A stretch of DNA of 54,655 bases from Enterobacteria phage mEp021: sequence record MH706966; one strand, given 5' to 3'. The notes under the pieces are model-generated. The model was not told the origin of the DNA, searched no databases, and saw nothing but the letters and a program-made list of their open reading frames with translations. Positions within the stretch are counted from its first letter, which is position 1, and each line of letters opens with the position of its first letter. Positions 2,850-26,731 of the stretch are shown here, piece after piece. The position numbers and the translations under genes are program-made.

Positions 2850-3573
2850 GGTTAGATAACGCCTCGTTTATTCTATTTGATGCAATTTCGAAATATTTTT
2901 CATCCTTTTCTATGCCGATAAAACGTCGGTTAGTATTAATGCAGGCAACGCCTGTAGTTCCGCTGCCCATAGTAAAATCGAGAACCGTTTCCCCTTCGTT
3001 AGTGTATGTCTTAATTAGGTATTCCATCAGTGCGACAGGCTTTTGTGTTGGGTGTACCTTGCCTTTCTGGTTTGCGTTACTTATCTCTATAATGCTTTTA
3101 GGGTGCTTATCCTTATAAGTCCTTAAATCACCATAATTAATTATGCGGTTTGCCTCCCCAGCAGAATATGTTTTACCCGTCCTTTCCTTTTGCGGAGTTT
3201 TTATTGGGTAATATTTGACAGCGCCTTTAGAAAAAACAACAACATCCTCATGCACCCTATAAGGTTGCCATTTGAGGACTTGCATGTTACCGCCTTTCTT
3301 CTTGTCCCATACCCAGCAATATTTAAACATGCTTATGTTGCTTGCAATTAGTGTTGTAGTGAACGGCTGACTTGCAGTCATCACAATGGCGCAATTCGGC
3401 TTAACTATGCGCTTTAATTGCTCCCACATTGGATTAAGAGGAATGACGGAATCCCATTTGCAGGCCGTTGTGCCGTAAGGCGGATCAGCCATTACCATAT
3501 CAACGCTACCGCCTGGGATAGAGTTCATGACCTCCAGACAATCACCCAACAATAATGTAACATCTTTATTCAT
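2836..3573 (-). CDS. DNA methyltransferase, N6-adenine or N4-cytosine type
   Basis: 245 aa; DPPY catalytic motif (MADPPYGT) near the N-terminus and AdoMet motif FTMGSGTTGVA near the C-terminus (motif IV before motif I). Confidence 0.75.
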   Translation of the reverse strand: MNKDVTLLLGDCLEVMNSIPGGSVDMVMADPPYGTTACKWDSVIPLNPMWEQLKRIVKPNCAIVMTASQPFTTTLIASNISMFKYCWVWDKKKGGNMQVLKWQPYRVHEDVVVFSKGAVKYYPIKTPQKERTGKTYSAGEANRIINYGDLRTYKDKHPKSIIEISNANQKGKVHPTQKPVALMEYLIKTYTNEGETVLDFTMGSGTTGVACINTNRRFIGIEKDEKYFEIASNRINEALSNHEAN

Positions 3574-3582
3574 TATGTTGCC

Positions 3583-3780
3583 TCATGATACACCGTTACT
3601 ATTTTTCCACTGTGACCGCGCATACATGATCGCCCACAGAGAAATAAGCCTTGAGCTAGACATATAATCGTTTTTGAGTTTTTTCATATCAATAATAACA
3701 GGACTATCAGGATCGTCACCTCGCATGTATTCCGCAATCGTGCTCAAGTCTTCCACGGTCAAATCTAATTCCCTATTCAT
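3583..3780 (-). CDS. Hypothetical protein (65 aa)
   Basis: ORF in a tightly packed leftward operon. Confidence 0.35.
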   Translation of the reverse strand: MNRELDLTVEDLSTIAEYMRGDDPDSPVIIDMKKLKNDYMSSSRLISLWAIMYARSQWKNSNGVS

Positions 3781-3789
3781 GGTCGCCCC

Positions 3790-3996
3790 TTACACAATCC
3801 GCATTGTGTTTCGTAATTCACCGCGCAACGCCTGCAAAGCGTAATGAATCGGCACAAAAGCACGGTTAAATTTTACGTGCTTATACTTGCGCATTAGTGG
3901 CGGCGTATAAACCATCGTGCCGCAAGGATCGCATGTGAATTTAAAGTGAGATTCGTCAATAAACGTTTCAACTGAATAAAAAATTACCCGTCTCAT
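3790..3996 (-). CDS. Hypothetical protein (68 aa)
   Basis: ORF in a tightly packed leftward operon; overlaps the upstream gene by 4 nt. Confidence 0.35.
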   Translation of the reverse strand: MRRVIFYSVETFIDESHFKFTCDPCGTMVYTPPLMRKYKHVKFNRAFVPIHYALQALRGELRNTMRIV

Positions 3997-4629: not shown

Positions 4630-6045
4630 TTAAAAAGATGCGTTATTCTGGTTGTTTCGTTGGTTAAATCTGCCTGTGCGGTGATTCATAGACTGAATAC
4701 ACGCAGCAGCCGCGCGTGCCTGGTCGCATGGTAAAATGTTGCCGTTATCATCAAACCGCTGGTAAACAGTGCCAGATTTACCATGACGGTTTTTCGATAC
4801 AATGATTTCCATATATTCGCGGGCTACAGACTGCTCATCGTAATATCCATCGCGGTAAACCATGATGATCCTGTCAGCATCTTGTTCAAGGTTCCCGGAA
4901 TCGCGCAGATCTGAATTGTTAGGACGCTTGTTCGGTCGCTCCTCAACGCGGCGTGACAACTGCGCCAGCGCTAACACTGGAACGCGCAATTCTTTTGCCA
5001 TCATCTTCAACGACCATGACAATTGCCCAACAGCGAGATCATGACGTTCAGCCTTAGCCAGCTTCATCAACCCGATGTAGTCAATCATTACCATACCCAG
5101 GTTAGGATGTTCCTGTTTCATCCGTTCCGTGGTGGCGCGTATTTCCTCAACCGTTAACTGCGACGCGTCAACGATCCACACATCAAGATTAGCAAGTGCG
5201 CTCATACCCTTGCCGACATGCGCCCACCCCTCATCATCAAGTTTTACCGGATTACGCAGGCAGTCTGTTGATAAATTACCAGCGCCAGCTATAGCGCGTT
5301 CAGTCATCTGATCGAGTGACATTTCAAGCGTGAAGAACAAAACGCCAACCCGCTGATCTTTACTGCCAGGGTAAGGGCGCTCAGCGGCAGCGCGGGCAAT
5401 TGTCAGCGCCAACGCAGATTTACCAGACCCAGGGCGTCCAGCTAAAAGCACCAAATCAGTAGCGTTAATGCCTCCCAACATCTCATCGAGTGGATCTATC
5501 CCTGTTTTGATGTTGTCAGAATTAACACCGCATTCCATGCGCTTGCTTAAAACGTCCGTATATTCCTGTACCGCATCACGCAACAGAACAGGAATGATCT
5601 TATCTTTCGTTACCTTTAATTTTGAATACCGGGAATCAAAATCTTTCATCGTCTCTTTGACGACCTCAAGCGTCCCCGTCTCCAGTTTGTAGCGCATATC
5701 GTCGATGAGTTCCAACATCTGCCGCCGCTGGTGCTCTTCACGTAGTAGCTGTGCGTATCCCTTCAGGTTGGCAGCAGACGGGCACGATCTCGCCGTTTGC
5801 ATTAGCGGTACAAAGTTTTCGTTGCCAATCTCATCGCCAACCAATAACGCGTCAATAAGATTCCTGTTTCTGGCTTGCGCCCTGATAATTTCAAACGCAC
5901 GTTTATACAGCGGAATCGTGAACACTTCAGGATCAAGAGTGGCGAGAACATCTTGCGCGTTAGGAGTAAGGCCGCCCAACAGCAGCCCACCGATAACTGA
6001 CGCCTCACGTTCCTGCCGTAGTGAGTTTATTTGCTCAGTTACCAT
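4630..6045 (-). CDS. dnaB: Replicative DNA helicase, DnaB family
   Basis: 471 aa; Walker A GRPGSGKSALALTIA; DnaB-like N-terminal domain and overall pattern. Confidence 0.85.
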   Translation of the reverse strand: MVTEQINSLRQEREASVIGGLLLGGLTPNAQDVLATLDPEVFTIPLYKRAFEIIRAQARNRNLIDALLVGDEIGNENFVPLMQTARSCPSAANLKGYAQLLREEHQRRQMLELIDDMRYKLETGTLEVVKETMKDFDSRYSKLKVTKDKIIPVLLRDAVQEYTDVLSKRMECGVNSDNIKTGIDPLDEMLGGINATDLVLLAGRPGSGKSALALTIARAAAERPYPGSKDQRVGVLFFTLEMSLDQMTERAIAGAGNLSTDCLRNPVKLDDEGWAHVGKGMSALANLDVWIVDASQLTVEEIRATTERMKQEHPNLGMVMIDYIGLMKLAKAERHDLAVGQLSWSLKMMAKELRVPVLALAQLSRRVEERPNKRPNNSDLRDSGNLEQDADRIIMVYRDGYYDEQSVAREYMEIIVSKNRHGKSGTVYQRFDDNGNILPCDQARAAAACIQSMNHRTGRFNQRNNQNNASF

Positions 6046-7736: not shown

Positions 7737-9224
7737 TCATTGGCAGAAAACAATCTCTTTAAATGCTTTTTCTACCATGTCGAATACTTCCGGCCTGTAA
7801 TAGAAAAACTCATTGCTTCCATCAAATTTCACAGGAAAATTGATTTTATAATTACTAAAAGCCTTATGCATCGTGTTTTCTAGTTTATGTATACTTTCGG
7901 TTGGCCCTTCTAACGTTTTCACGACACACAAATCAGGGATTCTAACACCTGCTTTATGTGCGCTTTTTAATATCCGATTTCTTCGCTCGTTCTCCTTAAC
8001 ACTTACGCCGATTTTCATTTGTGTAGGTAATTCCAGATCATCAACCATGATGTAAAGTTTGCCATAATCATAACGAAAGAAACCGTATTTAGCGCATTTT
8101 TGGCAACCCCTACCGCGCTTAAGTTCTCTAGGTCTAACCGACCACTTATGATTACAAACCTTACAGCGGCATGATACTTTTTTATTTACGTTCGTTATTT
8201 CTCCCAGCACTTCAACATCAGGATTAACCTTAGCAATAGCTAAAACATGTTCTTCGTGCGTTATAATCTTCCCAGCACATTTTGGGCAACCCTTCCCGCG
8301 TTTAAGGTTGCTAGGAGTAACCGACCACTTATGATTACAAACCTTACAGCGGCATGATACTTTTTTATCTACGTTCGTTATTTCTCCCAGCACTTCAACA
8401 TCAGGATTAACCTTAGCAATAGCTAAAACATGTTCTTCGTGCGTTATAATCTTCCCAGCACATTTTGGGCAACCCTTACCGCGCTTAAGGTGGTTAGGTC
8501 TAACTGACCATTCATGATCACAAACCTTGCAGCGGCATAATACTTTTTTGTCGCCACCTGTAATTTCACCCAGCACTTCAACATCAGGATTAACCTTCGC
8601 AATGGCAGCAATTTGTTTATAATGTGATAGTCTTAGTTTTTGTGCAATTTTCACACATTTACATTTCGGGCAACCGCTCCCGTGTTTAAGGGCGTCAGGC
8701 GTAGCCGACCATACACGATCACAAATCTTGCAGCGGCATAATACTTTTGTTCTGCTATTAACAATTTTCCCCAGCACTTCAACATCAGGATTAATTCTTG
8801 AGATGGCGGCGATCTGTTCTTCGTGTGATAATCTTTTTGGCCCTTGCTTTAACATTGCGCATTTCGGGCAACCATTCCCGCGTTTAAGGTTGCTAGGAGT
8901 AACCGACCACTCATGATCACAAACCTTGCAGCGGCATAATACTTTTGTGCTGTTATTTATTATTTCCCCCAACACTTCAACATCAGGATTAATTTTAGCA
9001 ATAGCCGCAATTTGTTCTTCGTGGGATAGCCTTGCGTTCCCAGCGCATTTTGGGCAACCTTTACCGTGTTTAAGGTTGCTAGGAGTAACCGACCATTCAT
9101 GATCACAAACCTTGCAGCGGCATAATACTTTTTCCCGGCTTCCAGTAATTTCTCCCATCACTTCAACATCAGGATTAACTTTCGCAATAGCTGCAACCTG
9201 TTCTTCGTGTGTTAGCTTGCACAT
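7737..9224 (-). CDS. Protein with six tandem Zn-ribbon modules and a C-terminal GIY-YIG-like (T5orf172-type) domain
   Basis: 495 aa; six ~55-aa repeats HEEQVAAIAKVNPDVEVLGEI...C.C..C.H.W...P..L..G.GCPKC; C-terminal GKLYIMVDD...KIGVS...RRNRIL pattern; repeats 5 and 6 are near-identical at DNA level. Confidence 0.55.
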   Translation of the reverse strand: MCKLTHEEQVAAIAKVNPDVEVMGEITGSREKVLCRCKVCDHEWSVTPSNLKHGKGCPKCAGNARLSHEEQIAAIAKINPDVEVLGEIINNSTKVLCRCKVCDHEWSVTPSNLKRGNGCPKCAMLKQGPKRLSHEEQIAAISRINPDVEVLGKIVNSRTKVLCRCKICDRVWSATPDALKHGSGCPKCKCVKIAQKLRLSHYKQIAAIAKVNPDVEVLGEITGGDKKVLCRCKVCDHEWSVRPNHLKRGKGCPKCAGKIITHEEHVLAIAKVNPDVEVLGEITNVDKKVSCRCKVCNHKWSVTPSNLKRGKGCPKCAGKIITHEEHVLAIAKVNPDVEVLGEITNVNKKVSCRCKVCNHKWSVRPRELKRGRGCQKCAKYGFFRYDYGKLYIMVDDLELPTQMKIGVSVKENERRNRILKSAHKAGVRIPDLCVVKTLEGPTESIHKLENTMHKAFSNYKINFPVKFDGSNEFFYYRPEVFDMVEKAFKEIVFCQ

Positions 9225-9365
9225 CGTTTCAACTCCTTAAAACGCCTCAGACACTCTACAACGCAAAAACACACCGCGTAATCCACTTGTAATGGTGCAG
9301 TGTCTTTTTTGCGCCAGAATCGCAATCAGGTGGCTAATTTTTTGATTTACAGACTGGTATGAAGG

Positions 9366-9467
9366 TTATGGATTTACTAGAAGGAACAAGCCGCCGAACA
9401 AAGCGACGTTAACAGCGATTGCAGCGGCGATGGCAAAAGCCAGGGCGAAAACGTGTTTACCGTCCAT
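9366..9467 (-). CDS. Small hydrophobic peptide (33 aa, single predicted TM helix)
   Basis: MDGKHVFALAFAIAAAIAVNVALFGGLFLLVNP; SD agagagga upstream; below the ORF-track cut-off. Confidence 0.35.
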   Translation of the reverse strand: MDGKHVFALAFAIAAAIAVNVALFGGLFLLVNP

Positions 9468-9600
9468 TTTAAAATCCTCTCTAAAACGCTCTCTAACGAG
9501 CTAAACCGCTAAAGGTATGCAAGTGTAGCACCCAATGCTTTTTAGCTCGCTTATGGGCTTGTTTTGTTGGTAATTTTTGATTTTTGCGTATTGTGGTTGG

Positions 9601-10608
9601 TCAAATAGCGCCTGCGCGTGTATCGCGTAGCGTTTTTGGTTTAAGCAGGAAATCAAGTGTCGCAGTGAAGCCATTGCCGAAGTAAAAGTCTGAAGCCGTG
9701 TTTTTAAACGCCTCAAAGTAAGCAATAAAGCCAGTGATGCTTTTGTCTTTCAGGTAGTCAGTGAACGCATAGATCTTGCGTTCAAGATCCCGATCCAGTT
9801 CAGCAGGTGGCAACAGGCCATCAAACGTGCTGTTAAATGCTTCCACTACGTCGGCAGCGTTTGCAGTGACTGACAGTTTGCTCCATTGTTCAGCATCAGC
9901 CAGATACCCATCGAATTTAGTTACCCGGCAAATGTTAACAGGCTTAGGCACTCCACCACGGCCACGCCATTGCGTTAAAGCCCACTCAATCACTAATGTG
10001 ATCTCACCCTCCGTATACGCTTTGCGTGTTTTTGTTTCTGTCAGTAGTTCTACGAATGGCTTTGCATCACGACATTTGCATCCTGCCTTGTCGTTGTAGA
10101 AGGACAGGCAACGCAATGCCGCCAGATTAACCTCCCGATCTTCTTCGCTGATAGACTCGTCTTTTTCCAATACACGAAGTGTATTGTTTTTAATGTTCTC
10201 TTTACTGGTTATATATGACTGATTAGGGTTGCTCTCTGCCACTACCCCCGGTTGCTTTGTGCCACTACCCTGGTTGCTCTCTGCCACTACCCCCGGTTGC
10301 TTTGTGCCACTACCTGACAGTGAAGGTAAAACGATTACATAGAAATTGCTCGTTTGTTCTTTCCCTCCTATTAAATATCGAGGCTGTTTTAGTAATAAAC
10401 CTTTTTTGCAAAGAGCCTCGATTGCTCTCATTGCCGTACTTTTGTTTATTTCGCATTGCTTTGCTATGTGCTGGTAAGAAGGGTAGCACTCTCCGTTATC
10501 GTTAGCGTTATCAGCCAACTTTAACAGCACAAGTTTGTGCATTGGGTTGCCGACTTCAGTATGAAAGACTTCAACCATTAGCCGCATACTCATAAGCATT
10601 AACCTCAT
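9601..10608 (-). CDS. Replication initiator, phage O-like
   Basis: N-terminal winged-HTH pattern KLVLLKLADNANDNGECYPSYQHIAKQCEINKSTAMRAIEALCKKGLL; iterons embedded in the coding sequence; true start probably the internal ATG at 10593 with a gaggt SD. Confidence 0.7.
   Translation of the reverse strand: MRLMLMSMRLMVEVFHTEVGNPMHKLVLLKLADNANDNGECYPSYQHIAKQCEINKSTAMRAIEALCKKGLLLKQPRYLIGGKEQTSNFYVIVLPSLSGSGTKQPGVVAESNQGSGTKQPGVVAESNPNQSYITSKENIKNNTLRVLEKDESISEEDREVNLAALRCLSFYNDKAGCKCRDAKPFVELLTETKTRKAYTEGEITLVIEWALTQWRGRGGVPKPVNICRVTKFDGYLADAEQWSKLSVTANAADVVEAFNSTFDGLLPPAELDRDLERKIYAFTDYLKDKSITGFIAYFEAFKNTASDFYFGNGFTATLDFLLKPKTLRDTRAGAI
10227..10314. repeat. Four tandem ~22-bp iterons (ggttgctYtSTgccactaccc), candidate replication origin
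   Basis: Direct repeats at 10227-10249, 10250-10271, 10272-10294, 10295-10314, inside the O-like gene (encoding SGTKQPGVVAESN twice). Confidence 0.6.
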
Positions 10609-10614
10609 GACGAA

Positions 10615-10860
10615 CTAAAACATTAACTGATAAACACAGAAGAAGCCTGGAAGCTGGCTAATCAGGCCGCTTCTTTTCAGTTGATGCAGTGCAGAGATAG
10701 TGTCACGTAACGAAATTTCGCACATTTCCGCGATCTCTTCCGGAGTTACTTCGCTTTTGCCGTTGCATCCGGCCTTTGTTGCCAGTGCAATTAAGATAAG
10801 TTTTTGCACATGATCATTGTTATTCAGGCGAATATCAAAAGCCTTGCGAACGTAATACAT
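10615..10860 (-). CDS. Small winged-helix DNA-binding protein, first gene of the leftward operon (Cro-like by position)
   Basis: 81 aa; KLILIALATKAGCNGKSEVTPEEIAEMCEISLRDTISALHQLKRSGLI resembles the N-terminal domain of the O-like protein; divergent from cI; SD aggaga. Confidence 0.45.
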   Translation of the reverse strand: MYYVRKAFDIRLNNNDHVQKLILIALATKAGCNGKSEVTPEEIAEMCEISLRDTISALHQLKRSGLISQLPGFFCVYQLMF

Positions 10861-11166
10861 GTTTCTTTCTCCTATGGTTAGAGTGAACGCGCGGGCGGGT
10901 ATCCAATTAGCATTAGATAGCAGTGACTGACCGCTGAACAGATCCCGCCGTTGCGTGATATTTGTTTTTCGCTTCGCAGCGACACCGGATTTTTAAAGAG
11001 CTTTTAAGGTATGTACCTTTTGTGCTTTCCCTTATCTTTTTTCTTGCATCATTGCAACTATGGCCTTACCTTGTCAGCAAGTTTACAGAATGGAGCTTTA
11101 AGATCAAGGCTTGAAAAATACGTTTTGTGACTTGCATCAAAATTTTTTAGGTTATAGGGTAGCGAT
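10861..11166. promoter_or_regulatory. Divergent promoter/operator region between the Cro-like gene and cI
   Basis: 306-bp non-coding spacer with a 14-bp palindrome aaggtatgtacctt (11007-11020), an inverted repeat ttgcatcattgcaa (11044-11057) and a second cttgcatca (11129-11137). Individual operators not assigned. Confidence 0.5.
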
Positions 11167-11814
11167 ATGAAAACAAAATGGTATGACTTAGCAAAACAAC
11201 TCATGCGGGCGCAGGGCATGAGCCAGGATTCATTGGCTGATCTTATGGGGATCACAAAAGGCGGCCTTTCTCACTGGCTGAACGGTAGACGTGAGCCAAA
11301 TCTTGAAGATATTGCGCGTATCATGCGGGCGCTTGGGCGTCGGCAGTTCACTGTCACACATGATGGAATGGTCATTGATGATTCTGTTTCTAACACGTTG
11401 CCGGGAGCGCCGCCGCGTGATTTAGGTAGTTACCCGGTTGTTGACTGGAAGGATGTAGTAAACAATATGGAAGATGCAAGGCGATCAACATTACCACACG
11501 TTACGACTAGCGTTATTTGTTCAGATGATAGTTATTGGCTGGTAGCTAAAGGCGAATCAATGAACGCGCCGCAAGGATTGAGTATACCAGCGGGGACGAT
11601 GATACTTGTCGATCCGCACGCGCCAGCTATTGACGGCAAACTGGTTATAGCCCAATTGGAGGAGGGGCAGGTACCGACGTTTAAACAGTTGATTATTGAT
11701 GGAGGTCAAAGACTTTTGCGTTCGCTCAATCCGCTGTATCCGCCAATCCCTATGAATCCAGAATCAAAAATTATAGGCGTGGTGGTTGATGCGAAGATCG
11801 TAAACCTGCCATAA
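11167..11814 (+). CDS. cI: CI-type repressor (HTH plus S24 LexA-like peptidase domain)
   Basis: 215 aa; N-terminal HTH QDSLADLMGITKGGLSHWLNGRREP; C-terminal AKGESM...DGKLVIAQL S24 autocleavage pattern. Confidence 0.85.
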   Translation: MKTKWYDLAKQLMRAQGMSQDSLADLMGITKGGLSHWLNGRREPNLEDIARIMRALGRRQFTVTHDGMVIDDSVSNTLPGAPPRDLGSYPVVDWKDVVNNMEDARRSTLPHVTTSVICSDDSYWLVAKGESMNAPQGLSIPAGTMILVDPHAPAIDGKLVIAQLEEGQVPTFKQLIIDGGQRLLRSLNPLYPPIPMNPESKIIGVVVDAKIVNLP

Positions 11815-11818
11815 ACAT

Positions 11819-11845
11819 TAGCCGCCGGATGGCGGCTTTTCTTTG
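11819..11845 (+). terminator. Rho-independent terminator after cI
   Basis: Hairpin gccgcc-ggat-ggcggc followed by ttttctttg. Confidence 0.7.
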
Positions 11846-12223
11846 CCGTAAAAACACCAAAACGTAAACAGAAAACATGTTTTATCATTTAAATATCAAT
11901 GAGATAGAAAATTTTTTAAAAAAGTATACAAAATGGATTGACTCTGTATATCACGGGGCGTATATTGCGAATCAAAGGAAGGAGGCAGGAAACAAAAAAG
12001 CACCTTCCAGGCACTTTAAAAAATCAGGCTTAACACCTTGTCAACCGTGGAGTAACTCCCCGATGGGGGACCGAAAGCGGCACTGATAACAAGGCGCATG
12101 GGGTGTTTAAAGCGTTACACCCCCCACGAAACCGCACGCAAGGCGACGAGTCAGCTTGCTTGGAGTGAGCAAGGTCACACCGGAAACGGCGATGATTGCG
12201 GGATTAGTTGAAAGATGTTAAGC

Positions 12224-12261
12224 CGCTCATTAACAATCTGGTCAGCCGCTGGAAGTGCGGC
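12224..12261 (+). promoter_or_regulatory. nutL-like site: boxA-like cgctcattaacaa plus boxB-like hairpin gccgc-tggaagt-gcggc
   Basis: Matches the boxA consensus cgctctttaacaa at 11 of 13 positions; hairpin 8 nt downstream; lies just upstream of the N-like gene. Confidence 0.45.
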
Positions 12262-12317
12262 AATTAACGAAGATGATTTTTTATTAAGTATCATCAAGGA
12301 TATAAGGAGATCAGATC

Positions 12318-12608
12318 ATGACAGTTACAATCATGTATGGCAAATGTGACAGTAAACTGAATGCCAGGGAACGCAGAAGAATAAAAAGAGAAAACGAAAG
12401 AAAATCATCACCTGCAATTAATAAAACGGACAATGTGGATAAAGCCATTCGCTTTGCAAACGAGGAAAGATGCAAACCCAATGGCATTAAAGAACGTCGC
12501 AAAGGAGCGGTAAAATGGTATACGGAAAATGAAAGCGGCAACTACTACCACGCAACGCAACCACGCCAGTTAGGGGAAAAACCCCTTGATAAAGTCCGCT
12601 ACCATTAA
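12318..12608 (+). CDS. N-like transcription antiterminator (arginine-rich motif protein)
   Basis: 96 aa; N-terminus MTVTIMYGKCDSKLNARERRRIKRENERK resembles the P22 gene 24 / lambda N arginine-rich RNA-binding motif as recalled; SD aaggaga. Confidence 0.55.
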   Translation: MTVTIMYGKCDSKLNARERRRIKRENERKSSPAINKTDNVDKAIRFANEERCKPNGIKERRKGAVKWYTENESGNYYHATQPRQLGEKPLDKVRYH

Positions 12609-12638
12609 TACAAAATGTAAATAATCGGAGGTGACATT

Positions 12639-12761
12639 ATGGTTATCGAGGCGCTCAAATTCAAACTTGCGGTAGCGGAAATGCTTCATGATGCCGAAAT
12701 GTGGAGCGCCGCGAATAAAGCCTTATACGTAGTGTTAACAGCGAAGGAGATCAAAGAGTGA
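12639..12761 (+). CDS. Hypothetical small protein (40 aa)
   Basis: Strong SD ggaggtga; stop overlaps the erf start. Confidence 0.35.
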   Translation: MVIEALKFKLAVAEMLHDAEMWSAANKALYVVLTAKEIKE

Positions 12762-13399
12762 AAACAGAGTTACACAAAAAGCTGTGGACGATTCAACAAA
12801 CGTTGAATGCGCCGAAAAATCAGCGTAATAATTTCGGTGGGTACAATTACAGGTCGGCGGAGGATATTTTAGAGGCGGTTAAGCCACTGCTTCAAAATAT
12901 CACGCTGACTGTTAGCGATGAAATCGTCCTGATCGGCAATCGCTATTATGTGAAGGCCACAGCTACGCTAAGCGACGGTGAAGATGAAATTGCGGTAACT
13001 GCTTACGCCAGGGAAGAAGAAAGCAAGAAGGGAATGGACGCAAGCCAGTTAACTGGCGCGACATCAAGTTATGCGCGGAAATACGCGTTGAACGGATTGT
13101 TCTGTATTGATGATGCGCGAGATCCTGATACTGACGCATACGCGAAGCAGACTGGCCAGCAGCCTCGCCAGCAGAAAAACACACCAAAACAACAACCACA
13201 GCAGCAGAAAGCGCCGCCAAATCCTGACGAGGTGTTAGCGCGTTTCTGTGATGCAGCAGCGAAAGCGCCTGACGCTAACAAGTTGCGCGAGATATTCGGG
13301 AAGTGCTGGAAGCTACTTCCTAAAGATTCAGAACAGCAACAGAAAGCTAAAGACGTTTATGATATTCGCTTAAAAGAGCTTAACGGGGAGATCGGTTAA
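12758..13399 (+). CDS. erf: Erf-family single-strand annealing protein
   Basis: 213 aa; N-terminus LNAPKNQRNNFGGYNYRSAEDILEAVKPLL resembles P22 Erf as recalled; GTG start with SD gaaggaga. Confidence 0.75.
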   Translation: MKTELHKKLWTIQQTLNAPKNQRNNFGGYNYRSAEDILEAVKPLLQNITLTVSDEIVLIGNRYYVKATATLSDGEDEIAVTAYAREEESKKGMDASQLTGATSSYARKYALNGLFCIDDARDPDTDAYAKQTGQQPRQQKNTPKQQPQQQKAPPNPDEVLARFCDAAAKAPDANKLREIFGKCWKLLPKDSEQQQKAKDVYDIRLKELNGEIG

Positions 13400-13809
13400 T
13401 GAGCTTAAATTCAATTACGCTTGGCGGTAACGTTGGGAATGATTGCGAAACGAGATTTACATCAAACGGGAAAGCAATCGGTAGTTTCTCACTTGCTGTA
13501 CAACAAGGTTACGGTGATAACAAACGTGCAATGTGGGTAACGTGTTTAATATTAGGTGATAGAGCAACAAAATTAGCCGAACATATTAGGAAGGGGGATC
13601 ACCTGGTTGTAAGTGGTCGGTTGGATGTTAGGGATTGGGAAGGGCAGGACGGAAGAAAAAACAAATCAGTTGAGGTTATCGTGTCAGATATTGAATTTAT
13701 GAGCGGAAATAAACGCAGCGACCAAAACCAAAACAGACAACGCGAACAGCAACAACAATATAACCAGGATAACGGCGGGCAGGACTGCGACCAAGATATC
13801 CCATTTTAG
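13399..13809 (+). CDS. ssb: Single-stranded DNA-binding protein
   Basis: 136 aa; OB-fold pattern, glutamine-rich linker and C-terminal acidic tail ending DIPF. Confidence 0.85.
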   Translation: MSLNSITLGGNVGNDCETRFTSNGKAIGSFSLAVQQGYGDNKRAMWVTCLILGDRATKLAEHIRKGDHLVVSGRLDVRDWEGQDGRKNKSVEVIVSDIEFMSGNKRSDQNQNRQREQQQQYNQDNGGQDCDQDIPF

Positions 13810-13838
13810 CGAATATAATCAATTAGTTAGGTGTTATT

Positions 13839-14363
13839 ATGAGTAATGCCGAACCATTGAAAATATGTTGTACTTGCGGGGCACTATTGCCCCTTTCTTG
13901 TTTTCATAACGATAAGGGCAAGAAAGACGGCAAATCATGTAGATGTAAAGAGTGCGCCAAAAAAGCCACTAGAGAATGGAGTGAAGCGAATAAAGAAAGA
14001 AAAAAGAAAAATGATAGCGAATACGCAAAAACAGATAAAGCCAAAAAGAAAAGGGAAGAATACAGAAAATCGCAAAGAGGTAAAGAGATCGCGGCTGAAT
14101 CAAGAAAAAAATGGAATGAGAAAAACCCTAAAAAATACCACGCCCAAGTGATGGCACATAACGCTATCCGCGACGGCAAATTAATTAAACAACCTTGCGA
14201 AGTATGCGGCAGAGATGACCGCGTACACGCGCACCATTGCGATTATGATAAGCCGCTCGATGTTATGTGGCTTTGCCCGATATGCCATCGAGAGTGGCAC
14301 AACGAACACGGTGAAGGAGCTAATGCACACGACGAGGTATTAAGTGGTGAGCGAATATCTTAA
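13839..14363 (+). CDS. Zinc-binding protein with HNH-like C-terminal motif and lysine-rich centre
   Basis: 174 aa; CCTCG...C.C.EC then HAHHCDYDKPLDVMWLCPICHREWH. Confidence 0.5.
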   Translation: MSNAEPLKICCTCGALLPLSCFHNDKGKKDGKSCRCKECAKKATREWSEANKERKKKNDSEYAKTDKAKKKREEYRKSQRGKEIAAESRKKWNEKNPKKYHAQVMAHNAIRDGKLIKQPCEVCGRDDRVHAHHCDYDKPLDVMWLCPICHREWHNEHGEGANAHDEVLSGERIS

Positions 14364-14628
14364 AGCACCGCCACCGCCACCGCGAACAAAAGAACAAGTA
14401 TTAAAAGAAGCCCGTGATCATATCGATCATGGGCTTTTTTTATGCGGAACGGCGGCGGATCGAATGGCGAAAAGATTTAGTGACCTGTACGCAAAACAAA
14501 TATGGTTCGACAACTGGCAGGCAAGTTTTTACCCACTGCAAAGAAAACCGGATATGCATTGGCCTGAATATGTCGATCCACGTATGCGCAAATATCGCGG
14601 GCGTATGGGCCAGGTTATTAACGATTAA
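14344..14628 (+). CDS. Hypothetical protein (94 aa)
   Basis: ORF in the rightward early operon. Confidence 0.4.
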   Translation: MVSEYLKAPPPPPRTKEQVLKEARDHIDHGLFLCGTAADRMAKRFSDLYAKQIWFDNWQASFYPLQRKPDMHWPEYVDPRMRKYRGRMGQVIND

Positions 14629-14642
14629 TGAGGTATTAAATC

Positions 14643-14867
14643 ATGATCGAAGATAAAGAAGTTGACGTAGAAATTCCTGACAGCGCTGATGAGCTTATCA
14701 CTTTCGGCGGCGGCCTGTATGAGTTCGATACATCGGCTGGGTGGGTTGATAAGTGGCCTCAGCCTACTCGCCAGGAATTAATTAACCGCAAATCATTCGG
14801 CGAAGATGCAGAACGCCTTGCTAATAACAAGTGGCTTAACAAGTTCATTGCGGAGGGTGATAAATGA
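14643..14867 (+). CDS. Hypothetical acidic protein (74 aa)
   Basis: ORF with SD; D/E-rich. Confidence 0.45.
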   Translation: MIEDKEVDVEIPDSADELITFGGGLYEFDTSAGWVDKWPQPTRQELINRKSFGEDAERLANNKWLNKFIAEGDK

Positions 14868-14977
14868 ACCTTGCAAAAATTGCCGCATTGCTTGCGGCTT
14901 TGTCTATCGCTGTGCTGTATCTCAGCGTATCGCTTTATATAACGGTAGCGATCATTAAACTCATTGCTAACATGTGA
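14864..14977 (+). CDS. Small membrane peptide (37 aa)
   Basis: MNLAKIAALLAALSIAVLYLSVSLYITVAIIKLIANM; ATGA overlap with the upstream stop; SD ggaggg. Confidence 0.45.
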   Translation: MNLAKIAALLAALSIAVLYLSVSLYITVAIIKLIANM

Positions 14978-14985
14978 GGTTAATC

Positions 14986-15105
14986 ATGAAAGTCGGTAAG
15001 GATATTGTGACGGTCGCGTTTTGCATTATTTGCTTCCTATTTGTGGTTGTGTTTTGTGGCGGATTTGCAGCGCTGGTTAGCTTTATTTTCAGGGGATTGT
15101 TGTGA
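14986..15105 (+). CDS. Small membrane peptide (39 aa)
   Basis: MKVGKDIVTVAFCIICFLFVVVFCGGFAALVSFIFRGLL; SD tgaggt; overlaps the next gene start. Confidence 0.45.
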   Translation: MKVGKDIVTVAFCIICFLFVVVFCGGFAALVSFIFRGLL

Positions 15106-15377
15106 TGAAAACATGGGATGCAAAGACTGGTGATCTTGTTGTATTGCCTGAATATCGTGATGACCCTGGCCTGGTTGTACTGAATAAGATGTATAACGAT
15201 CTAGATCGCCCGCTAGTGGTTAAATACCTGGACGGAACAATCATAGAACCGCGCTACTTTGATGATATTGAACTGAAGGCCCGCAACGTTCGCGTTAAGC
15301 CGTTCCGGGCTTATGTTGAGGACCACTGGCGGAAATTGTTCGCCGGACTGAATGGGATGTACGGCGTATGGCTATAA
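15102..15377 (+). CDS. Hypothetical protein (91 aa)
   Basis: ORF in a tightly packed operon. Confidence 0.45.
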   Translation: MMKTWDAKTGDLVVLPEYRDDPGLVVLNKMYNDLDRPLVVKYLDGTIIEPRYFDDIELKARNVRVKPFRAYVEDHWRKLFAGLNGMYGVWL

Positions 15378-15559
15378 AGGAAGTAAAGGTCAAAGACCTG
15401 AAAGGCGGTGAGCGATTAAAGGCGTGGTGGGGTCGCGAGTTTACAGCCGCTGCCTTCATGATCATGCAGGGCGGGGAGGTCGTTATATACGATGAAGACC
15501 TGAAGGAAGTCGGCAGGTGGCATCTTGAGCAATATATCGAGGTGTTAGATGAAAATTAA
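15368..15559 (+). CDS. Hypothetical protein (63 aa)
   Basis: ORF in a tightly packed operon. Confidence 0.4.
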   Translation: MAIKEVKVKDLKGGERLKAWWGREFTAAAFMIMQGGEVVIYDEDLKEVGRWHLEQYIEVLDEN

Positions 15560-15881
15560 ATTCCATAAAGGTTATGATTCGGTCACTAACAAGTTATCGC
15601 TATTTATTGAGTTCGAGCGCCGGATCGTGGTTGTTCCTTATTCTCGGCGCTTTAATGATGCGGCAGGGCGGCGGCAATTCGCGTTAGACATGTTGTTACG
15701 TGGCTGCGGCCTTATGCGCCCGCTATCTGATTTGAAACGGATGATGCCGGGATCGTTCGGTCAGATTGATGAAATAGAAATAAGCCCGGAAGAACTGAAG
15801 CGGGAGCGTGATTTATTCCTTTCAAGCGAAGGAAACCCGTTTAATTCAGAAACAGAAATGAAATGGCATCACCCACTATAA
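15549..15881 (+). CDS. Hypothetical protein (110 aa)
   Basis: ORF in a tightly packed operon. Confidence 0.45.
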   Translation: MKIKFHKGYDSVTNKLSLFIEFERRIVVVPYSRRFNDAAGRRQFALDMLLRGCGLMRPLSDLKRMMPGSFGQIDEIEISPEELKRERDLFLSSEGNPFNSETEMKWHHPL

Positions 15882-15894
15882 AAGGATAAATATC

Positions 15895-16515
15895 ATGAAC
15901 GACATTAAAACAGCTTATTCACTAGGCAGCGATGGCATGTTAATCACTCGCTACACTGAAGACGCAAGTTTTCATGAAGTGGAAACGAAGGATTATCACG
16001 AAGTATTAAAAGATATGGAAGCTGGCGCGTATGACGCAGATTTGAATCTGGCTTTACAGATTGTTGATATTATGATGGACGCGTCGATCCGCGATTATGT
16101 GTCTTTAAACGCTGAAGAAAAAACGGCTGTGGCTCGTTATGTCTTCTGCCTAACTTTCGTGAAACGAATGGAAGAGGAATATGGGCGCGTGCCAGTGCCG
16201 GAAGAAATTGACCCGCTGGCGTTCGGAAGCGCTGTTATTTTCCCGTTAGATGAAAATCATACTGGTAGCGTTGCGCTGCATTCTATGCGCGGCGTAATGA
16301 AATGCATCTTTGAGGCTAAAGCGCTACAGAAGTGCATTGATGAAGGGCATGACGAAGAAGACGTAAAAGCGATCATGCCGTTGTTTTATGGCGAAATGGT
16401 TGGGAACAACATGCGCGCAAATGATTTAGGTGTGCAGGCTGCCATAACTGTACTTAACGAAGCGCGGAAAATGTCGCAGCCAATGCCGGAACCTGAAAAA
16501 CGTGTACTGCATTAA
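15895..16515 (+). CDS. Hypothetical acidic protein (206 aa)
   Basis: Long ORF with SD; markedly D/E-rich. Confidence 0.5.
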   Translation: MNDIKTAYSLGSDGMLITRYTEDASFHEVETKDYHEVLKDMEAGAYDADLNLALQIVDIMMDASIRDYVSLNAEEKTAVARYVFCLTFVKRMEEEYGRVPVPEEIDPLAFGSAVIFPLDENHTGSVALHSMRGVMKCIFEAKALQKCIDEGHDEEDVKAIMPLFYGEMVGNNMRANDLGVQAAITVLNEARKMSQPMPEPEKRVLH

Positions 16516-16614
16516 CATCGTGATTGCGATCACATAAATATACATTTTGTGTTGTGATCGCATATCCGTTTTGTAAACTGAAATCAAAAGGTTTACGGCA
16601 CGGAGGAAAACAAG

Positions 16615-16833
16615 ATGGCAAGCGAATTAATGCTTTATTGTGTTGAAGGTGGCGTGGGACATGATGCCTACGTCGCCGGGAAAAGCTATCCAGCAGATGA
16701 AGTGCTTTCTAATATGCACTTCCGGGAAAATGAAAACCAGGTGTCTGTGTGGAAGCGATGCGTTGATGGCATTGAGGTAGTTAGCCTCGAAAGATATTTG
16801 GGTAAATTTGACTACGCATTGATCGAGGCTTAA
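16615..16833 (+). CDS. Hypothetical protein (72 aa)
   Basis: SD cggagg upstream. Confidence 0.45.
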   Translation: MASELMLYCVEGGVGHDAYVAGKSYPADEVLSNMHFRENENQVSVWKRCVDGIEVVSLERYLGKFDYALIEA

Positions 16834-16931
16834 CTATGGACGAAACATTGCTATTCATGTGCATTTGCTGGGGTTTTATTGCCTTATGCCTGTTTATCAG
16901 GTGGTTTATTGAATACCATATGAGGTGATAT

Positions 16932-17126
16932 ATGGAACAGAAAACTGATTATAGAATACCTGACAACCTGAAGTTAGTTGGCATTGGTTTTGGTTGTCGT
17001 TTTGTATCTGACGCAAACGGGGCGATTTATTTAGTGCGCATCATTGATGGCGTTCAACATATAAGAAGGCTAGGACTTTACATCAAAGCATTTAGAAGAG
17101 GTTATTTGAAAACTCATGAAATTTAA
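16932..17126 (+). CDS. Hypothetical protein (64 aa)
   Basis: ORF with SD gaggtga. Confidence 0.4.
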   Translation: MEQKTDYRIPDNLKLVGIGFGCRFVSDANGAIYLVRIIDGVQHIRRLGLYIKAFRRGYLKTHEI

Positions 17127-17319
17127 ACAGTATAAAGAATGGAAGATTCCAGAAGAAGCGACAAAGGCAGCGCCCGGAATTTTTTCGGGCGTTTATTTTT
17201 ATATGGGCGGTAAATGGTATTTCGGCAGCAGGCCGGATCACTATTATCAAGAATTATGCAAATCTCACACATGGGACATTAATGAACGCGTGCAAGGCGG
17301 TGTAATAGACGAGGTTTAA
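17116..17319 (+). CDS. Hypothetical protein (67 aa)
   Basis: ORF overlapping its neighbours by a few nt. Confidence 0.4.
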   Translation: MKFKQYKEWKIPEEATKAAPGIFSGVYFYMGGKWYFGSRPDHYYQELCKSHTWDINERVQGGVIDEV

Positions 17320-17320
17320 A

Positions 17321-17557
17321 ATGATTAATGGTTTTTTAAGCTGGTTAAGAGTGTGGTTTTTTGCCACGCTTTTCGTTTTTTTGGCGTTCAGCGGTGTCAT
17401 TGTCATATTTACGCTGGCGATGATGTTCATTACATGGTCAGTACCTGAATTTAACAATCTTGGAAGTATTTTTGCTGTCGCCCGCGCCATGTTTGCTTGT
17501 AGCGCATTTGTTGGTTTTTGTTGGAGTGTTTCGCCTGATTGGGATGATGAATGGTGA
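17321..17557 (+). CDS. Small membrane protein (78 aa, two predicted TM helices)
   Basis: Hydrophobic segments FFATLFVFLAFSGVIVIFTLAMMFI and FACSAFVGFCW. Confidence 0.45.
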   Translation: MINGFLSWLRVWFFATLFVFLAFSGVIVIFTLAMMFITWSVPEFNNLGSIFAVARAMFACSAFVGFCWSVSPDWDDEW

Positions 17558-17561
17558 TCCT

Positions 17562-17795
17562 ATGGCCTTGTTCAATATGTCAGAACTGCAATTCAACGCC
17601 GTAAAAGCTGCCGCCCGCGCTGCACTTTCTGCTTGCAAAGCGGAGGTAGAGAAAAACGGCTACAGCGATAAAGCCACGCGGCTGATATTAGAAAAGCATT
17701 ATCGCAAGGTCGCCCCACTAATCAGCATTGAGCGCTTTGTGTGGTTGGTGGGGTATTTAAACAACCGTTGGGGGACGGAACAAGATTATTTCTAA
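17562..17795 (+). CDS. Hypothetical protein (77 aa)
   Basis: Internal ATG start chosen to avoid overlap with the upstream membrane-protein ORF. Confidence 0.4.
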   Translation: MALFNMSELQFNAVKAAARAALSACKAEVEKNGYSDKATRLILEKHYRKVAPLISIERFVWLVGYLNNRWGTEQDYF

Positions 17796-17804
17796 GGGGG
17801 CGTA

Positions 17805-18344
17805 ATGAAAAATGATTTTGGAGGCAGCCACACTCCTAAGGAAATTAAAGATCTATGGCAGACGCCTAAACCAGTTTTCAGAGGAATGGACCGCGAATTT
17901 GAATTTGTCGCTGACGTGGCGGCAAACAAGGAAAATGCGCTAGTTCCTCGGTATATAACCGAAGAAATGGACACGTTGCATTATCCGTGGGGAGCTGTGG
18001 CAATGCCTGGTGAGTATGTCTGGCTTAATCCGCCATATTCTAAACCGGGGCCATTCGTTGAGAAGGCGGCATTAGAACATCAACGAAATCACATTGGCTG
18101 TGTAATGCTGTTGCCCGCTGACATTTCTGTTAGCTGGTTTATGAACGGCGTGGATACGGCAAACGAATGCCGATTAATCACGCGCGGGCGGCTGGCGTTT
18201 ATCAATGCTGCGACTGGTAAGCCAGTAAGCGGAAACAATAAAGGGAGCTTGTTTTTGATCTGGCATCCACGGTGCAGACATGAATGTATTTTTACACACA
18301 TAACACGTAAAGAGCTATACGCAAGAGGTGCAGATAATGACTAG
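17805..18344 (+). CDS. dam: Phage-type DNA N6-adenine methyltransferase (Dam-like)
   Basis: 179 aa; WQTPKPVF...DVAANKENALVPRYIT...WLNPPYS pattern of the phage Dam family; SD aaggggg. Confidence 0.75.
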   Translation: MKNDFGGSHTPKEIKDLWQTPKPVFRGMDREFEFVADVAANKENALVPRYITEEMDTLHYPWGAVAMPGEYVWLNPPYSKPGPFVEKAALEHQRNHIGCVMLLPADISVSWFMNGVDTANECRLITRGRLAFINAATGKPVSGNNKGSLFLIWHPRCRHECIFTHITRKELYARGADND

Positions 18345-18834
18345 TGCAGCAGATTTACTACGAATCGCAGCGGAAACAATTGAGCAAAGAGGTAAACAAA
18401 ACGGCTACGACAGAAAAGAGGAAAAATCAGCGCCAAAAATAGCCACTATATACAACGCTAAGAAGGGCGCAAATTTAACCCCACTTGATGTATGGGATCT
18501 GATGATTTGTCTTAAGGAGGCGCGTTTAGAGGCTATTTTGGTTAATGGCAGCGATCCCACTGACACTTTGGTTGACCTAATCAGCTACAGCGCACTAAAA
18601 GCTGAGCAAATATTGAATGATCTGGATGAAGAGTTAAAGAAAAATCAGTTCACTGCCGCCAATATTAATGATGGAATAATAAATGACGCAGCAATAACAA
18701 GCTGTAAGGGATTGCCGCCTTCAATGCTTAAACCTCAGTGTGGCTGTATTTCAAATCGGCTTGATTTGAGTTTTGACAGATCTGAAGCTATTCGCGACAA
18801 GAGGTATGACCCAAATGAAAAAGGTGACAATTGA
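18337..18834 (+). CDS. Hypothetical protein (about 165 aa)
   Basis: ORF with SD aagagg; no motif recognised. Confidence 0.45.
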   Translation: MTSAADLLRIAAETIEQRGKQNGYDRKEEKSAPKIATIYNAKKGANLTPLDVWDLMICLKEARLEAILVNGSDPTDTLVDLISYSALKAEQILNDLDEELKKNQFTAANINDGIINDAAITSCKGLPPSMLKPQCGCISNRLDLSFDRSEAIRDKRYDPNEKGDN

Positions 18835-24337: not shown

Positions 24338-24538
24338 ATGTTCGACAGAATACGGGAGGCGTGTGCGTATGTGACTGGGGCCGTAACTGCTTTTTTCGGC
24401 GCTATAACCATCAATGACGTCGCTGTTTTCGTTGGTATCTTATCAACCATAGGCACATTTGCCGTTAATTATTACTTCAAATCACAGGAGAACAAGCGGG
24501 CGCAAGAGGAACACGACGCGCGAATGGGGAATAAGTAA
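24338..24538 (+). CDS. Holin, pinholin-like (two TM segments)
   Basis: 66 aa; hydrophobic segments and a charged C-terminus; directly upstream of a SAR endolysin. Confidence 0.6.
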   Translation: MFDRIREACAYVTGAVTAFFGAITINDVAVFVGILSTIGTFAVNYYFKSQENKRAQEEHDARMGNK

Positions 24539-25030
24539 ATGATTAGCCAATCGCTGAAAAACAAGATTGTTGCGGCGGCGGCTGGTGGGGCGATCGCTAT
24601 TGCGGCGGTGATGATTAAGCCATTAGAGGGCGTGGAATACGATCCTTATCGTGATGTTGTTGGCGTATGGACTGTTTGCTACGGTCACACCGGAAAAGAC
24701 ATCATGCTTGGGAAGACTTACACGCAATCAGAATGCGATGCTTTGTTGAACAAAGATCTACATAAGACCGCAAAAGCGATTGACCCATATATCAAAGTCG
24801 AAATATCAGATTTTACCCGCGCTGCACTTTATTCATTCGCCTATAACGTAGGCGCAACCAACTTCAAAACATCAACCTTATTAAAGCTACTCAATGACGG
24901 CAAGAAATCAGAGGCGTGCGCACAGCTTAAGCGCTGGGTATACGCTGGCGGTAAGAAGTGGCAAGGCCTGGTTAACCGCCGCGAGGTTGAATATGCCGTT
25001 TGCGAATGGGGTGAGAAATGGACAAGGTGA
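24539..25030 (+). CDS. SAR endolysin (GH24 lysozyme with N-terminal signal-anchor-release segment)
   Basis: 163 aa; N-terminal weakly hydrophobic [15 protein letters not shown]; catalytic region [22 protein letters not shown]. Confidence 0.85.
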
Positions 25031-25824: not shown

Positions 25825-26409
25825 ATGGCTAAGGGTAAAGGCATTAAGTTGCCTCAATTCAAAGTTCCGCTCTTTGAGCATACAACAGTTTTCTTCTGCC
25901 CGACCCGCGACATGTTTTATGAATTTTGCGAAAGGGCCGGAATACCAATCGAACCTGATTTCGAACTGGCAGGAGGATTAACGCTTACTTGTACTGGTGA
26001 GAAAGGCGGTAATTTCTATGTGATCGCAGTATTCGACAATGAGTTAGGTACGCTGGTACACGAATGCGCTCACACTACATTCCACGTTCTAAGCGATGTA
26101 GGTGTCGTGGCAACCACTGATCCAACTCATCCGGCAAACGAGACATATGCTTACATGGTAGGCCGTATCTTTGACGCATTCTTCCCAATCCTGGCAGAGT
26201 CAAACGAAGCACAGATTGCAGCAATGCAGGCGGCTGAAGTTGTCGAGAAGGCATTAGATCAGGCAGAAAAGGCGACTGATGCAGCAGAGCAAGCAGTAAA
26301 ACAGGCAGAGGAACCGAAAGAAGAGAAAAAACCAGTTAAGAAAGGCAAACGTAAGCCTAAAGCAAAAGAGGCGCTTGTGCCGCGTGTTATGAGATTTAAA
26401 CGGGGGTGA
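25825..26409 (+). CDS. Zincin-like HExxH protein with lysine-rich basic C-terminal tail
   Basis: 194 aa; LVHECAHTTFH; C-terminal KEEKKPVKKGKRKPKAKEA; SD agagga. Confidence 0.5.
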   Translation: MAKGKGIKLPQFKVPLFEHTTVFFCPTRDMFYEFCERAGIPIEPDFELAGGLTLTCTGEKGGNFYVIAVFDNELGTLVHECAHTTFHVLSDVGVVATTDPTHPANETYAYMVGRIFDAFFPILAESNEAQIAAMQAAEVVEKALDQAEKATDAAEQAVKQAEEPKEEKKPVKKGKRKPKAKEALVPRVMRFKRG

Positions 26410-26411
26410 TT

Positions 26412-26486
26412 ATGATTGACCCGCTCATTATCCTTTCTGCCTGTGTCGCTGTATGGCTGGCGATCATGATATTCATCGAAAGCTGA
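26412..26486 (+). CDS. Mini-ORF 1 of a tandem array: 24-aa single-TM peptide
   Basis: MIDPLIILSACVAVWLAIMIFIES; SD cgggggtga directly upstream. Confidence 0.4.
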   Translation: MIDPLIILSACVAVWLAIMIFIES

Positions 26487-26496
26487 AGGTGTTCAC

Positions 26497-26577
26497 ATGA
26501 ACGCATACGAAATGCTATTGCTGGTGGCTGTAGTTGTAGTCATTGCCGTTGATTTCTATCGAGGGTTTAAAAGATGA
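26497..26577 (+). CDS. Mini-ORF 2: 26-aa single-TM peptide
   Basis: MNAYEMLLLVAVVVVIAVDFYRGFKR; SD aaggtg 5 nt upstream. Confidence 0.4.
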   Translation: MNAYEMLLLVAVVVVIAVDFYRGFKR

Positions 26578-26645
26578 AAGAAGCAGACTTCTTTTGCATG
26601 ATTGTAGTGATCGTCATCATTGCGGTGATTTTAAACCTTAGTTGA
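26574..26645 (+). CDS. Mini-ORF 3: 23-aa single-TM peptide
   Basis: MKEADFFCMIVVIVIIAVILNLS; ATGA overlap with mini-ORF 2; SD gaggg. Confidence 0.4.
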   Translation: MKEADFFCMIVVIVIIAVILNLS

Positions 26646-26662
26646 ATCGCAGGGGGTTGAAA

Positions 26663-26731
26663 ATGAAATGGCTTGATTTCTTTTTCCTGATTGTTGCGAT
26701 TGTTCTAACCATGACCGCGCTTGCTCAATAG
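26663..26731 (+). CDS. Mini-ORF 4: 22-aa single-TM peptide
   Basis: MKWLDFFFLIVAIVLTMTALAQ; SD aggggg 6 nt upstream. Confidence 0.4.
   Translation: MKWLDFFFLIVAIVLTMTALAQ

Follow-up and report, generated by a model that had tools for sequence, protein, structure and literature searches.

The early regions of Enterobacteria phage mEp021 contain five small genes, here called A, B, C, E, and D in the order of their coordinates, which encode hydrophobic peptides of 30 to 78 amino acids (aa). They were studied in sequence record MH706966, a stretch of 54,655 nucleotides (nt) that is hereafter referred to as the window. On the evidence of their sequences, all five are real and conserved genes that have been poorly annotated, and the membrane location of their products is predicted. 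The original prediction, made from the letters of the window, had proposed that genuine genes for tiny hydrophobic proteins are scattered in the early regions, a view that is borne out, with purifying selection acting on the peptides in both early operons. The overall interpretation of real genes stands, while the claims on ATGA overlaps and number of genes hold only partly. The five open reading frames (ORFs), each preceded by a Shine–Dalgarno (SD) site, are the following:

9366-9467, minus strand: gene A, 33 aa, single-helix peptide MDGKHVFALAFAIAAAIAVNVALFGGLFLLVNP, AGAGGA SD site 7 nt before the ATG
14864-14977, plus strand: gene B, 37 aa, single-helix peptide MNLAKIAALLAALSIAVLYLSVSLYITVAIIKLIANM, GGAGG SD site
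14986-15105, plus strand: gene C, 39 aa, single-helix peptide MKVGKDIVTVAFCIICFLFVVVFCGGFAALVSFIFRGLL, GAGG SD site within the 8-nt gap after B
16836-16928, plus strand: gene E, 30 aa, single-helix peptide MDETLLFMCICWGFIALCLFIRWFIEYHMR, GAGG SD site
17321-17557, plus strand: gene D, 78 aa, GAGG SD site, one strong transmembrane (TM) helix plus a marginal second helix, acidic tail PDWDDEW

Genes A, B, C, and D had been listed beforehand with these coordinates and lengths as hydrophobic and SD-preceded, and all four were recovered as described, each with an ATG start and a GAGG or AGAGGA motif located 5-8 nt upstream. The listing was correct for these four, left the minus strand of A unstated, and overlooked the fifth ORF, E. 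Scanning positions 9001-18000 for ORFs 25-90 aa long that combine an SD site with a hydrophobic window returned five, as against a mean of 0.12 in dinucleotide shuffles, and none of the 300 shuffles reached five. A chance origin of these ORFs is ruled out.

The genes are tightly packed with their surroundings, since B, C, E, and D overlap or abut same-strand flanking genes. The ATG of B overlaps the TGA of a 74-aa gene (14643-14867) in an ATGA arrangement, which is the sole true overlap of this type among the set. Two ORFs had been claimed to be ATGA-coupled to neighbours; this is true for the start of B, whereas the stop of C shares 1 nt with the ATG of the next gene (TGATG), an overlap that would be 4 nt long with the GTG at 15102 as the start codon. 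Gene D starts 1 nt after the TAA of the upstream DUF7274 gene, and the gene following D begins 11 nt inside it. Gene A is free-standing, 33 nt after the upstream ORF, and belongs to the leftward (replication) operon, where it lies 3' of the O-like gene at 9601-10608. A hairpin at 14882-14898, inside B, was considered as a terminator and rejected as a by-product of the Ala-Ala-Leu-Leu-Ala-Ala codons, whose residues vary in relatives.

The conservation of the frames was evaluated in 43-44 genomes, comprising six phages, E. coli prophages, 31 IMG/VR contigs, and two of the most divergent prophages. Conservation in related phages had been put forward as a check of these genes, and it turned out positive, with open frames, ATG starts, and GAGG sites kept across the 43-44 related phages and prophages. 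Genes B and C are each present in 41 of 43 loci, the two exceptions being 4-kb contigs that stop short of both, whereas E is found in all 43 and D in all 44, about 40 of its copies being intact. B, C, D, and E are core genes, found in all related genomes with a contig that extends over them. Gene A occurs in 33 of the 43 loci as 24 nucleotide alleles and is truly absent from the PAR and KKa019 prophages, which have a MarR-like gene at this position. The remaining four alleles of D (L006, L043, L044, and L045) carry 1-nt indels, all of them inside G5 or T6 homopolymer tracts. Either sequencing errors (L044 contains a further split gene) or slippage-prone sites might explain these indels, and the tracts could let slippage switch the expression of D.

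Selection on the encoded peptides is evident from the ratio of non-synonymous to synonymous polymorphism (pN/pS). Pooled values in the annotated frame are 0.13-0.15 for A, 0.23-0.29 for B, 0.33-0.42 for C, 0.42-0.43 for D, and 0.14-0.19 for E, and for every gene the annotated frame gives the lowest value of the six, the others ranging from 0.7 to 2.6 save the antisense frame that shares third positions. With the same method, genes of the neighbourhood, among them erf, dam, and the N-like gene, score 0.06-0.26. Gene A has 21 invariant positions out of 33, many of them encoded by 2-4 synonymous codons, and 12 of the 14 columns that vary in the first six genomes are third positions. Across the peptides, many invariant residues have 2-4 different codons and, therefore, selection acts on the peptides and not on an RNA or DNA element. 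An Rfam search of positions 9000-18500 at a permissive threshold returned only sub-threshold noise. Conservation is unevenly distributed along the chains: the C-terminal half of B (YLSxSLYITVAIIKLI) and the N-terminal half of C (KDIVTVAFC(I/V)ICFLF) are nearly invariant, and the invariant motifs of D include TWSxP, R55, and SAFxG.

These data bear directly on the notion that the peptides are unimportant, either as chance frames or as spacer ORFs that serve translational coupling and protection from Rho polarity. The tight start and stop packing fits a coupling role, and the ORFs are indeed very short and of low-complexity composition. Nevertheless, amino acids are conserved while synonymous sites vary, the number of ORFs far exceeds that obtained by shuffling, and B and C persist despite a KilA-N gene inserted between them in one prophage, so that this explanation is very improbable. 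The insertion is found in the E. coli STEC306 prophage (L011, at about 3083-3796), where a KilA-N domain gene separates B and C with both peptides intact; thus, the B-C junction tolerates foreign genes. In the most divergent prophage (L046), an extra 39-aa TM ORF MELVEIILGFWILMAGLFTFYFDYEERKLAELRQRKGGK lies beside a divergent 29-aa E-like gene (5378-5497 and 5500-5589, plus strand) and, therefore, the E locus seems to collect small TM genes.

The membrane character of the products is predicted from their hydrophobicity. The best 19-residue Kyte–Doolittle windows score 2.3-3.0, and each of the five peptides has a window with a negative summed free energy of insertion (dG) on the Hessa scale. 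A, B, C, and E share an architecture composed of a short polar N-terminus followed by one helix of 19-23 hydrophobic residues. In D, helix 1 (about residues 11-37) is a robust TM helix, followed by the conserved loop TWSxPEFN and by helix 2 (47-69), which is marginally hydrophobic (+4 kcal/mol on the Hessa scale) and contains the invariant Arg55. An AlphaFold2 model of D built on an 18-sequence alignment is a two-helix hairpin (H2-40/H47-69) of moderate confidence, with a predicted local distance difference test (pLDDT) score of 72. Small and polar residues are conspicuous among the invariant positions. In A, the invariant A8-A12-A16-N20 line one helix face, together with G25G26, and a second small-residue face is formed by V6-A10-A14-A18-A22-G26. 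The helices of B and C keep Y19 and S23, and C13, C16, C24, and G25, respectively, whereas T38-W39-S40-x-P42, R55, and S61 are invariant in D. This uneven conservation suggests specific helix–helix contacts rather than bulk hydrophobicity.

The five genes belong to a group of related genomes. Among the Nus-dependent, non-lambdoid temperate coliphages known as 'mEpimmI', mEp021 is the archetype (PMC11893012). Region 9000-18000 is 100% identical to a partial mEp021 record and 89-97.5% identical to its equivalents in the complete genomes of the sister phages mEp515, mEp554, mEp010, mEp044, and mEp013, with mEp515 at 97.5%; identity to MagusPhagus is 85%. The layout of this early region resembles the immunity region of lambda, and its main landmarks are the following:

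11167-11814, plus strand: LexA-type cI repressor gene
11820-11837: terminator 3' of cI
11938-11966, plus strand: sigma-70-like site TTGACT-17-TATATT, 3' of the cI terminator, the best in the region with 10 of 12 matches
12318-12608, plus strand: N-like antiterminator gene gp17
17169-17193, plus strand: intrinsic-terminator-like hairpin with an 11-bp stem, 6 GC pairs, and a T-run, inside the DUF7274 gene and 130 nt upstream of D

The site at 11938-11966 is probably the early promoter of the plus-strand operon, which contains gp17, erf, ssb, B, C, E, and D. After gp17, the order on this strand is erf, ssb, an abc2-like gene, and then a string of small genes up to dam. The divergent minus-strand (replication) operon carries a cro-like gene and the O/DnaD-like replication gene at 9601-10608. 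Antitermination by Gp17 at nut sites has been described (PMC11893012). The hairpin at 17169-17193, to which a terminator annotated in four of the five sister mEp phages corresponds in position, is strong and lies upstream of D and, therefore, D and the genes downstream of it would need antitermination. The succession of erf, ssb, the abc2-like gene, and the 74-aa gene (plus strand, with a weak DUF2737 match) parallels erf, gp40, abc2, and DUF2737 in HK97. Judging by gene order, this part of the operon is a mosaic with P22/HK97-type phages, and B and C start where the likeness stops. On the other side, just downstream of gene A and in a variable spot of the genome, a 495-aa protein (7737-9224, minus strand) combines five tandem DUF4379/CapR treble-clef zinc-finger repeats with a subsequent T5orf172/MUG113 (GIY-YIG-like) domain, and has a weak PADLOC match to PDC-S57.

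The ORFs with their SD sites and hydrophobic helices were directly observed, as were their synteny, the purifying selection on their peptides, and the fact that B, C, D, and E are core genes. On this basis, the five genes probably encode tiny inner-membrane accessory proteins that are expressed early and act via specific helix–helix contacts. Under this proposal, B, C, E, and D would be transcribed within the plus-strand early operon (gp17, erf, ssb, dam) and A within the divergent replication operon. Since these operons are cI-controlled and dependent on Gp17 antitermination, expression would be expected after infection or induction, with silence in the lysogen. Each peptide would be translated from its own GAGG SD site, and translational coupling with the flanking genes is favoured by the tight spacing (overlaps or gaps of 1-8 nt, with A free-standing). 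The peptides would then insert into the cytoplasmic membrane with a topology that is also predicted, where they may bind larger membrane proteins of the host or the phage and modulate them by sequence-specific helix contacts, in analogy to AcrZ, MgrB, and MgtS. Membrane insertion and partner binding of bacterial small membrane proteins have been reviewed (PMC12648545), and PMC7549839 is a further source on this class.

Several observations weigh against this explanation. None of the five products has homology to any characterised protein in Pfam, PHROGs, NCBIfam, or PADLOC, nor has D in BFVD. Moreover, C and D are less constrained than their neighbours (pN/pS of about 0.4), and at least A and D are dispensable, as a frameshift occurs in four of the 44 alleles of D and two prophages lack A. 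A bolder version, in which B, C, E, and D, with A as an accessory, form a conserved battery of micro-proteins, each of them directed early in lytic growth against a specific inner-membrane machine of the host, is a speculative proposition with a small chance of being right. The targets could be a protease, a division or transport complex, or a membrane-bound defence effector and, if this were true, the battery would constitute a new set of host-takeover or anti-defence factors.

The same early setting is relevant to the possibility that the peptides permeabilise membranes in the manner of type I toxins, viroporins, or holins, generating pores or lesions for host shut-off, lysis timing, or killing. 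Tiny peptides of this kind are like the toxins TisB, Hok, Ldr, and Ibs in size and composition; moreover, the two small-residue faces and the invariant mid-helix Asn of A favour self-association, and D has the two-helix, ~70-aa format of class II holins. However, early co-expression with replication and recombination genes speaks against such an activity, as depolarisation at that time would harm the phage. In addition, no antisense-RNA antitoxin family was detected by Rfam in positions 9000-18500, B, C, E, and D form part of an operon and are not organised as stand-alone cassettes, and the phage encodes elsewhere a canonical lysis cassette that includes a class II holin. No holin model is matched by D, the tail of which is acidic instead of basic. 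A pore-forming role is, thus, unlikely. The type I toxin class has been reviewed (PMC12648545). The lysis cassette includes:

24338-24538: class II holin (Phage_holin_2_3, E=7e-15)
24539-25030: presumed endolysin, a 163-aa ORF assigned by position alone, followed by Rz/Rz1

Gene D was also considered as the lysis holin itself and rejected, since it has no Pfam match and is not located beside endolysin or spanin genes, the real holin being that at 24338-24538.

Alternatively, the peptides might be superinfection-exclusion or immunity proteins, comparable to HK97 gp15, T4 Imm/Sp, or P22 SieA, that block DNA entry of other phages at the inner membrane. Exclusion by small TM proteins is well known, the identical scan recovers HK97 gp15, and the mEpimmI group invests in exclusion via Lpp lipoproteins (PMC11893012). 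Nevertheless, it is to these Lpp proteins, and not to the five genes, that exclusion has been experimentally assigned (PMC11893012). None of the five genes has a convincing promoter of its own, and comparison with PHROGs and Pfam revealed no similarity of their products to known exclusion proteins. Since the operons of all five should be repressed in the lysogen, exclusion would be possible only during lytic growth, and this role seems about as doubtful as pore formation. Pore-forming toxins, exclusion proteins, and coupling ORFs are, each of them, less well supported than inner-membrane accessory proteins.

Similarity searches returned few matches. All five peptides yielded just two weak matches of unknown function in PHROGs (E=0.011 and 0.036), nothing or noise in Pfam, and no match in NCBIfam or PADLOC, while a Foldseek search of the D model against BFVD found no match. 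The peptides represent orphan families confined to this phage group, given that Pfam, PHROGs, NCBIfam, PADLOC, Rfam, and BFVD contain no significant match. A profile search with D across 1.84 billion representative proteins recovered 8 clusters only, the two most distant of which (P0115 and P0116, the sole ones whose contigs were read) come from syntenic prophages of the same group that keep B, C, and an E-like gene. Using the 40-aa mEp044 allele as a query in a large protein search, C was found in 55 clusters at 90% identity in public data, and no source name gives a function. A cluster table that joined C with the 90-aa downstream protein was taken as a clustering artefact. The exact sequence of A had no match in a collection of 15 billion proteins.

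Existing annotation differs greatly among sources. The PHANOTATE-based GenBank records for mEp515, mEp554, mEp010, mEp044, and mEp013 have a same-length ORF at all five positions as a hypothetical protein, and the MagusPhagus record annotates all four ORFs at the B, C, D, and E positions, also as hypothetical proteins. The genes are, therefore, not new to databases, as the sister-phage records already list them. By contrast, the RefSeq/PGAP annotation of prophages omits A, B, C, and E in every prophage examined. Four of the five genes are below 60 aa, in line with the earlier statement that most are missed at a 60-aa cut-off. The same annotation applies the name 'cell division protein FtsK' to D and 'toxin-antitoxin system toxin subunit' to the 90-aa gene after C (15105-15377, plus strand). 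Neither name is supported by Pfam or NCBIfam, and both are probably propagated legacy labels. An identity of D as FtsK was rejected: the protein has 78 aa, gives no Pfam or NCBIfam match at E<=0.1-1, and contains neither the FtsK/SpoIIIE ATPase nor the multi-TM N-terminal domain, and the name appears only as an inherited label in RefSeq and nr.

The phage had also been said to encode an unusually large number of tiny membrane proteins. The identical scan of the whole window gave 9 hits, namely the five genes described here, one member of a run at ~26.4-26.7 kb, an Rz1-like lipoprotein, and two probable false positives. In lambda it gave 5 hits, of which ~2 are credible (Rz1 and an unannotated 26-aa ORF), and in HK97 4 hits, of which ~3 are credible (two unannotated ORFs besides gp15). 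With the run near 26.5 kb included, the total for mEp021 rises to about ten tiny TM genes as compared to 1-3 in lambda and HK97. This indicates an enrichment rather than an outlier and, with a baseline of two genomes, gives the claim modest support.

The run consists of 4-5 tiny (23-29 aa) hydrophobic ORFs at 26406-26731 (plus strand), possibly extending to 26884, immediately before the gene of the terminase small subunit (26895). It is presumably the five-gene array to which the original prediction had referred, and its equivalent in mEp515 is annotated partially and partly in another frame. In lambda (NC_001416), the unannotated 26-aa hydrophobic ORF MTIYITELITGLLVIAGLFIWGRGKS is located between ren and ninB at 40567-40647 (plus strand) and has a GGAG SD site. 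Its ATG overlaps the ren stop and its own stop overlaps the ninB ATG, in both cases as ATGA, an overlap type shared by the start of B. The presence of such overlaps at both ends of the lambda ORF shows that this architecture is general in the early operons of temperate phages. The HK97 genome carries SD-led hydrophobic ORFs at 13560-13658 (plus strand, 32 aa) and 28006-28161 (minus strand, 51 aa) that are absent from its annotation.

The five genes are, hence, of an ordinary kind, as temperate phages, including lambda and HK97, carry similar tiny TM genes. Their importance is related to the fact that small membrane proteins are systematically under-annotated: in this case, four of five conserved genes are absent from the RefSeq prophage annotation and the fifth bears the misleading name 'FtsK'. 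Furthermore, the phage family carrying these genes is prevalent in the human gut. Being short, conserved, orphan, and easy to synthesise, they are practical candidates for functional screens of phage–host membrane interactions.

Among known systems, type I toxins (Hok, Ldr, TisB, Ibs, and ShoB) are likewise short single-helix hydrophobic peptides, some of them encoded on prophages (PMC12648545). A, B, C, and E, with 30-39 aa, fall within the size range of these toxins, which are hydrophobic, shorter than 60 aa, and span the membrane with a single TM helix. In contrast to type I toxins, the mEp021 genes have strong, accessible SD sites and are coupled in an operon. The antitoxin and the independent-unit organisation typical of type I systems were lacking, as the Rfam search of 9000-18500 detected no antisense RNA family above noise and a consensus scan revealed no convincing antisense promoter; a novel antisense RNA may exist in the region. 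As for class II holins of the P21 S/HP1 type, D resembles them in its size of ~70-80 aa and in its predicted two-helix hairpin, but it differs in the lack of a holin-model match, its distance of 7 kb from the lysis cassette, its acidic C-terminus, and its marginally hydrophobic helix 2.

HK97 gp15 and the lambda 26-aa ORF belong to the same size class as the mEp021 genes, share the SD-led architecture, and are found by the identical scan, although they have no homology to them. Gp15 is encoded by a moron in the tail region, is labelled a moron product in the annotation, has a putative terminator after its gene, and is expressed in lysogens, whereas the mEp021 genes are located in early operons. 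Morons possess a promoter and a terminator of their own, and no flanking pair of this kind was observed around any of the five genes in a consensus-pattern scan, which is a weak test. A resemblance in format also exists to the bacterial small inner-membrane proteins of the class described by Hemm and Storz (AcrZ, MgrB, MgtS, CydX, KdpF, and YohP), which are also proteins of 30-50 aa with one helix and a short polar end, have their own SD site, are conserved at the amino-acid level, and are routinely missed by annotation. It is from this class that the proposed binding to a larger membrane protein is taken as a model. The mEp021 genes differ from them in having no sequence similarity, in being phage-encoded, and in their position in early lytic operons. 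With no more than ~50 aa, one TM helix, their own ribosome-binding site, and a conserved peptide, A, B, C, and E have the format of this class of small membrane proteins, which is defined by function and not by homology.

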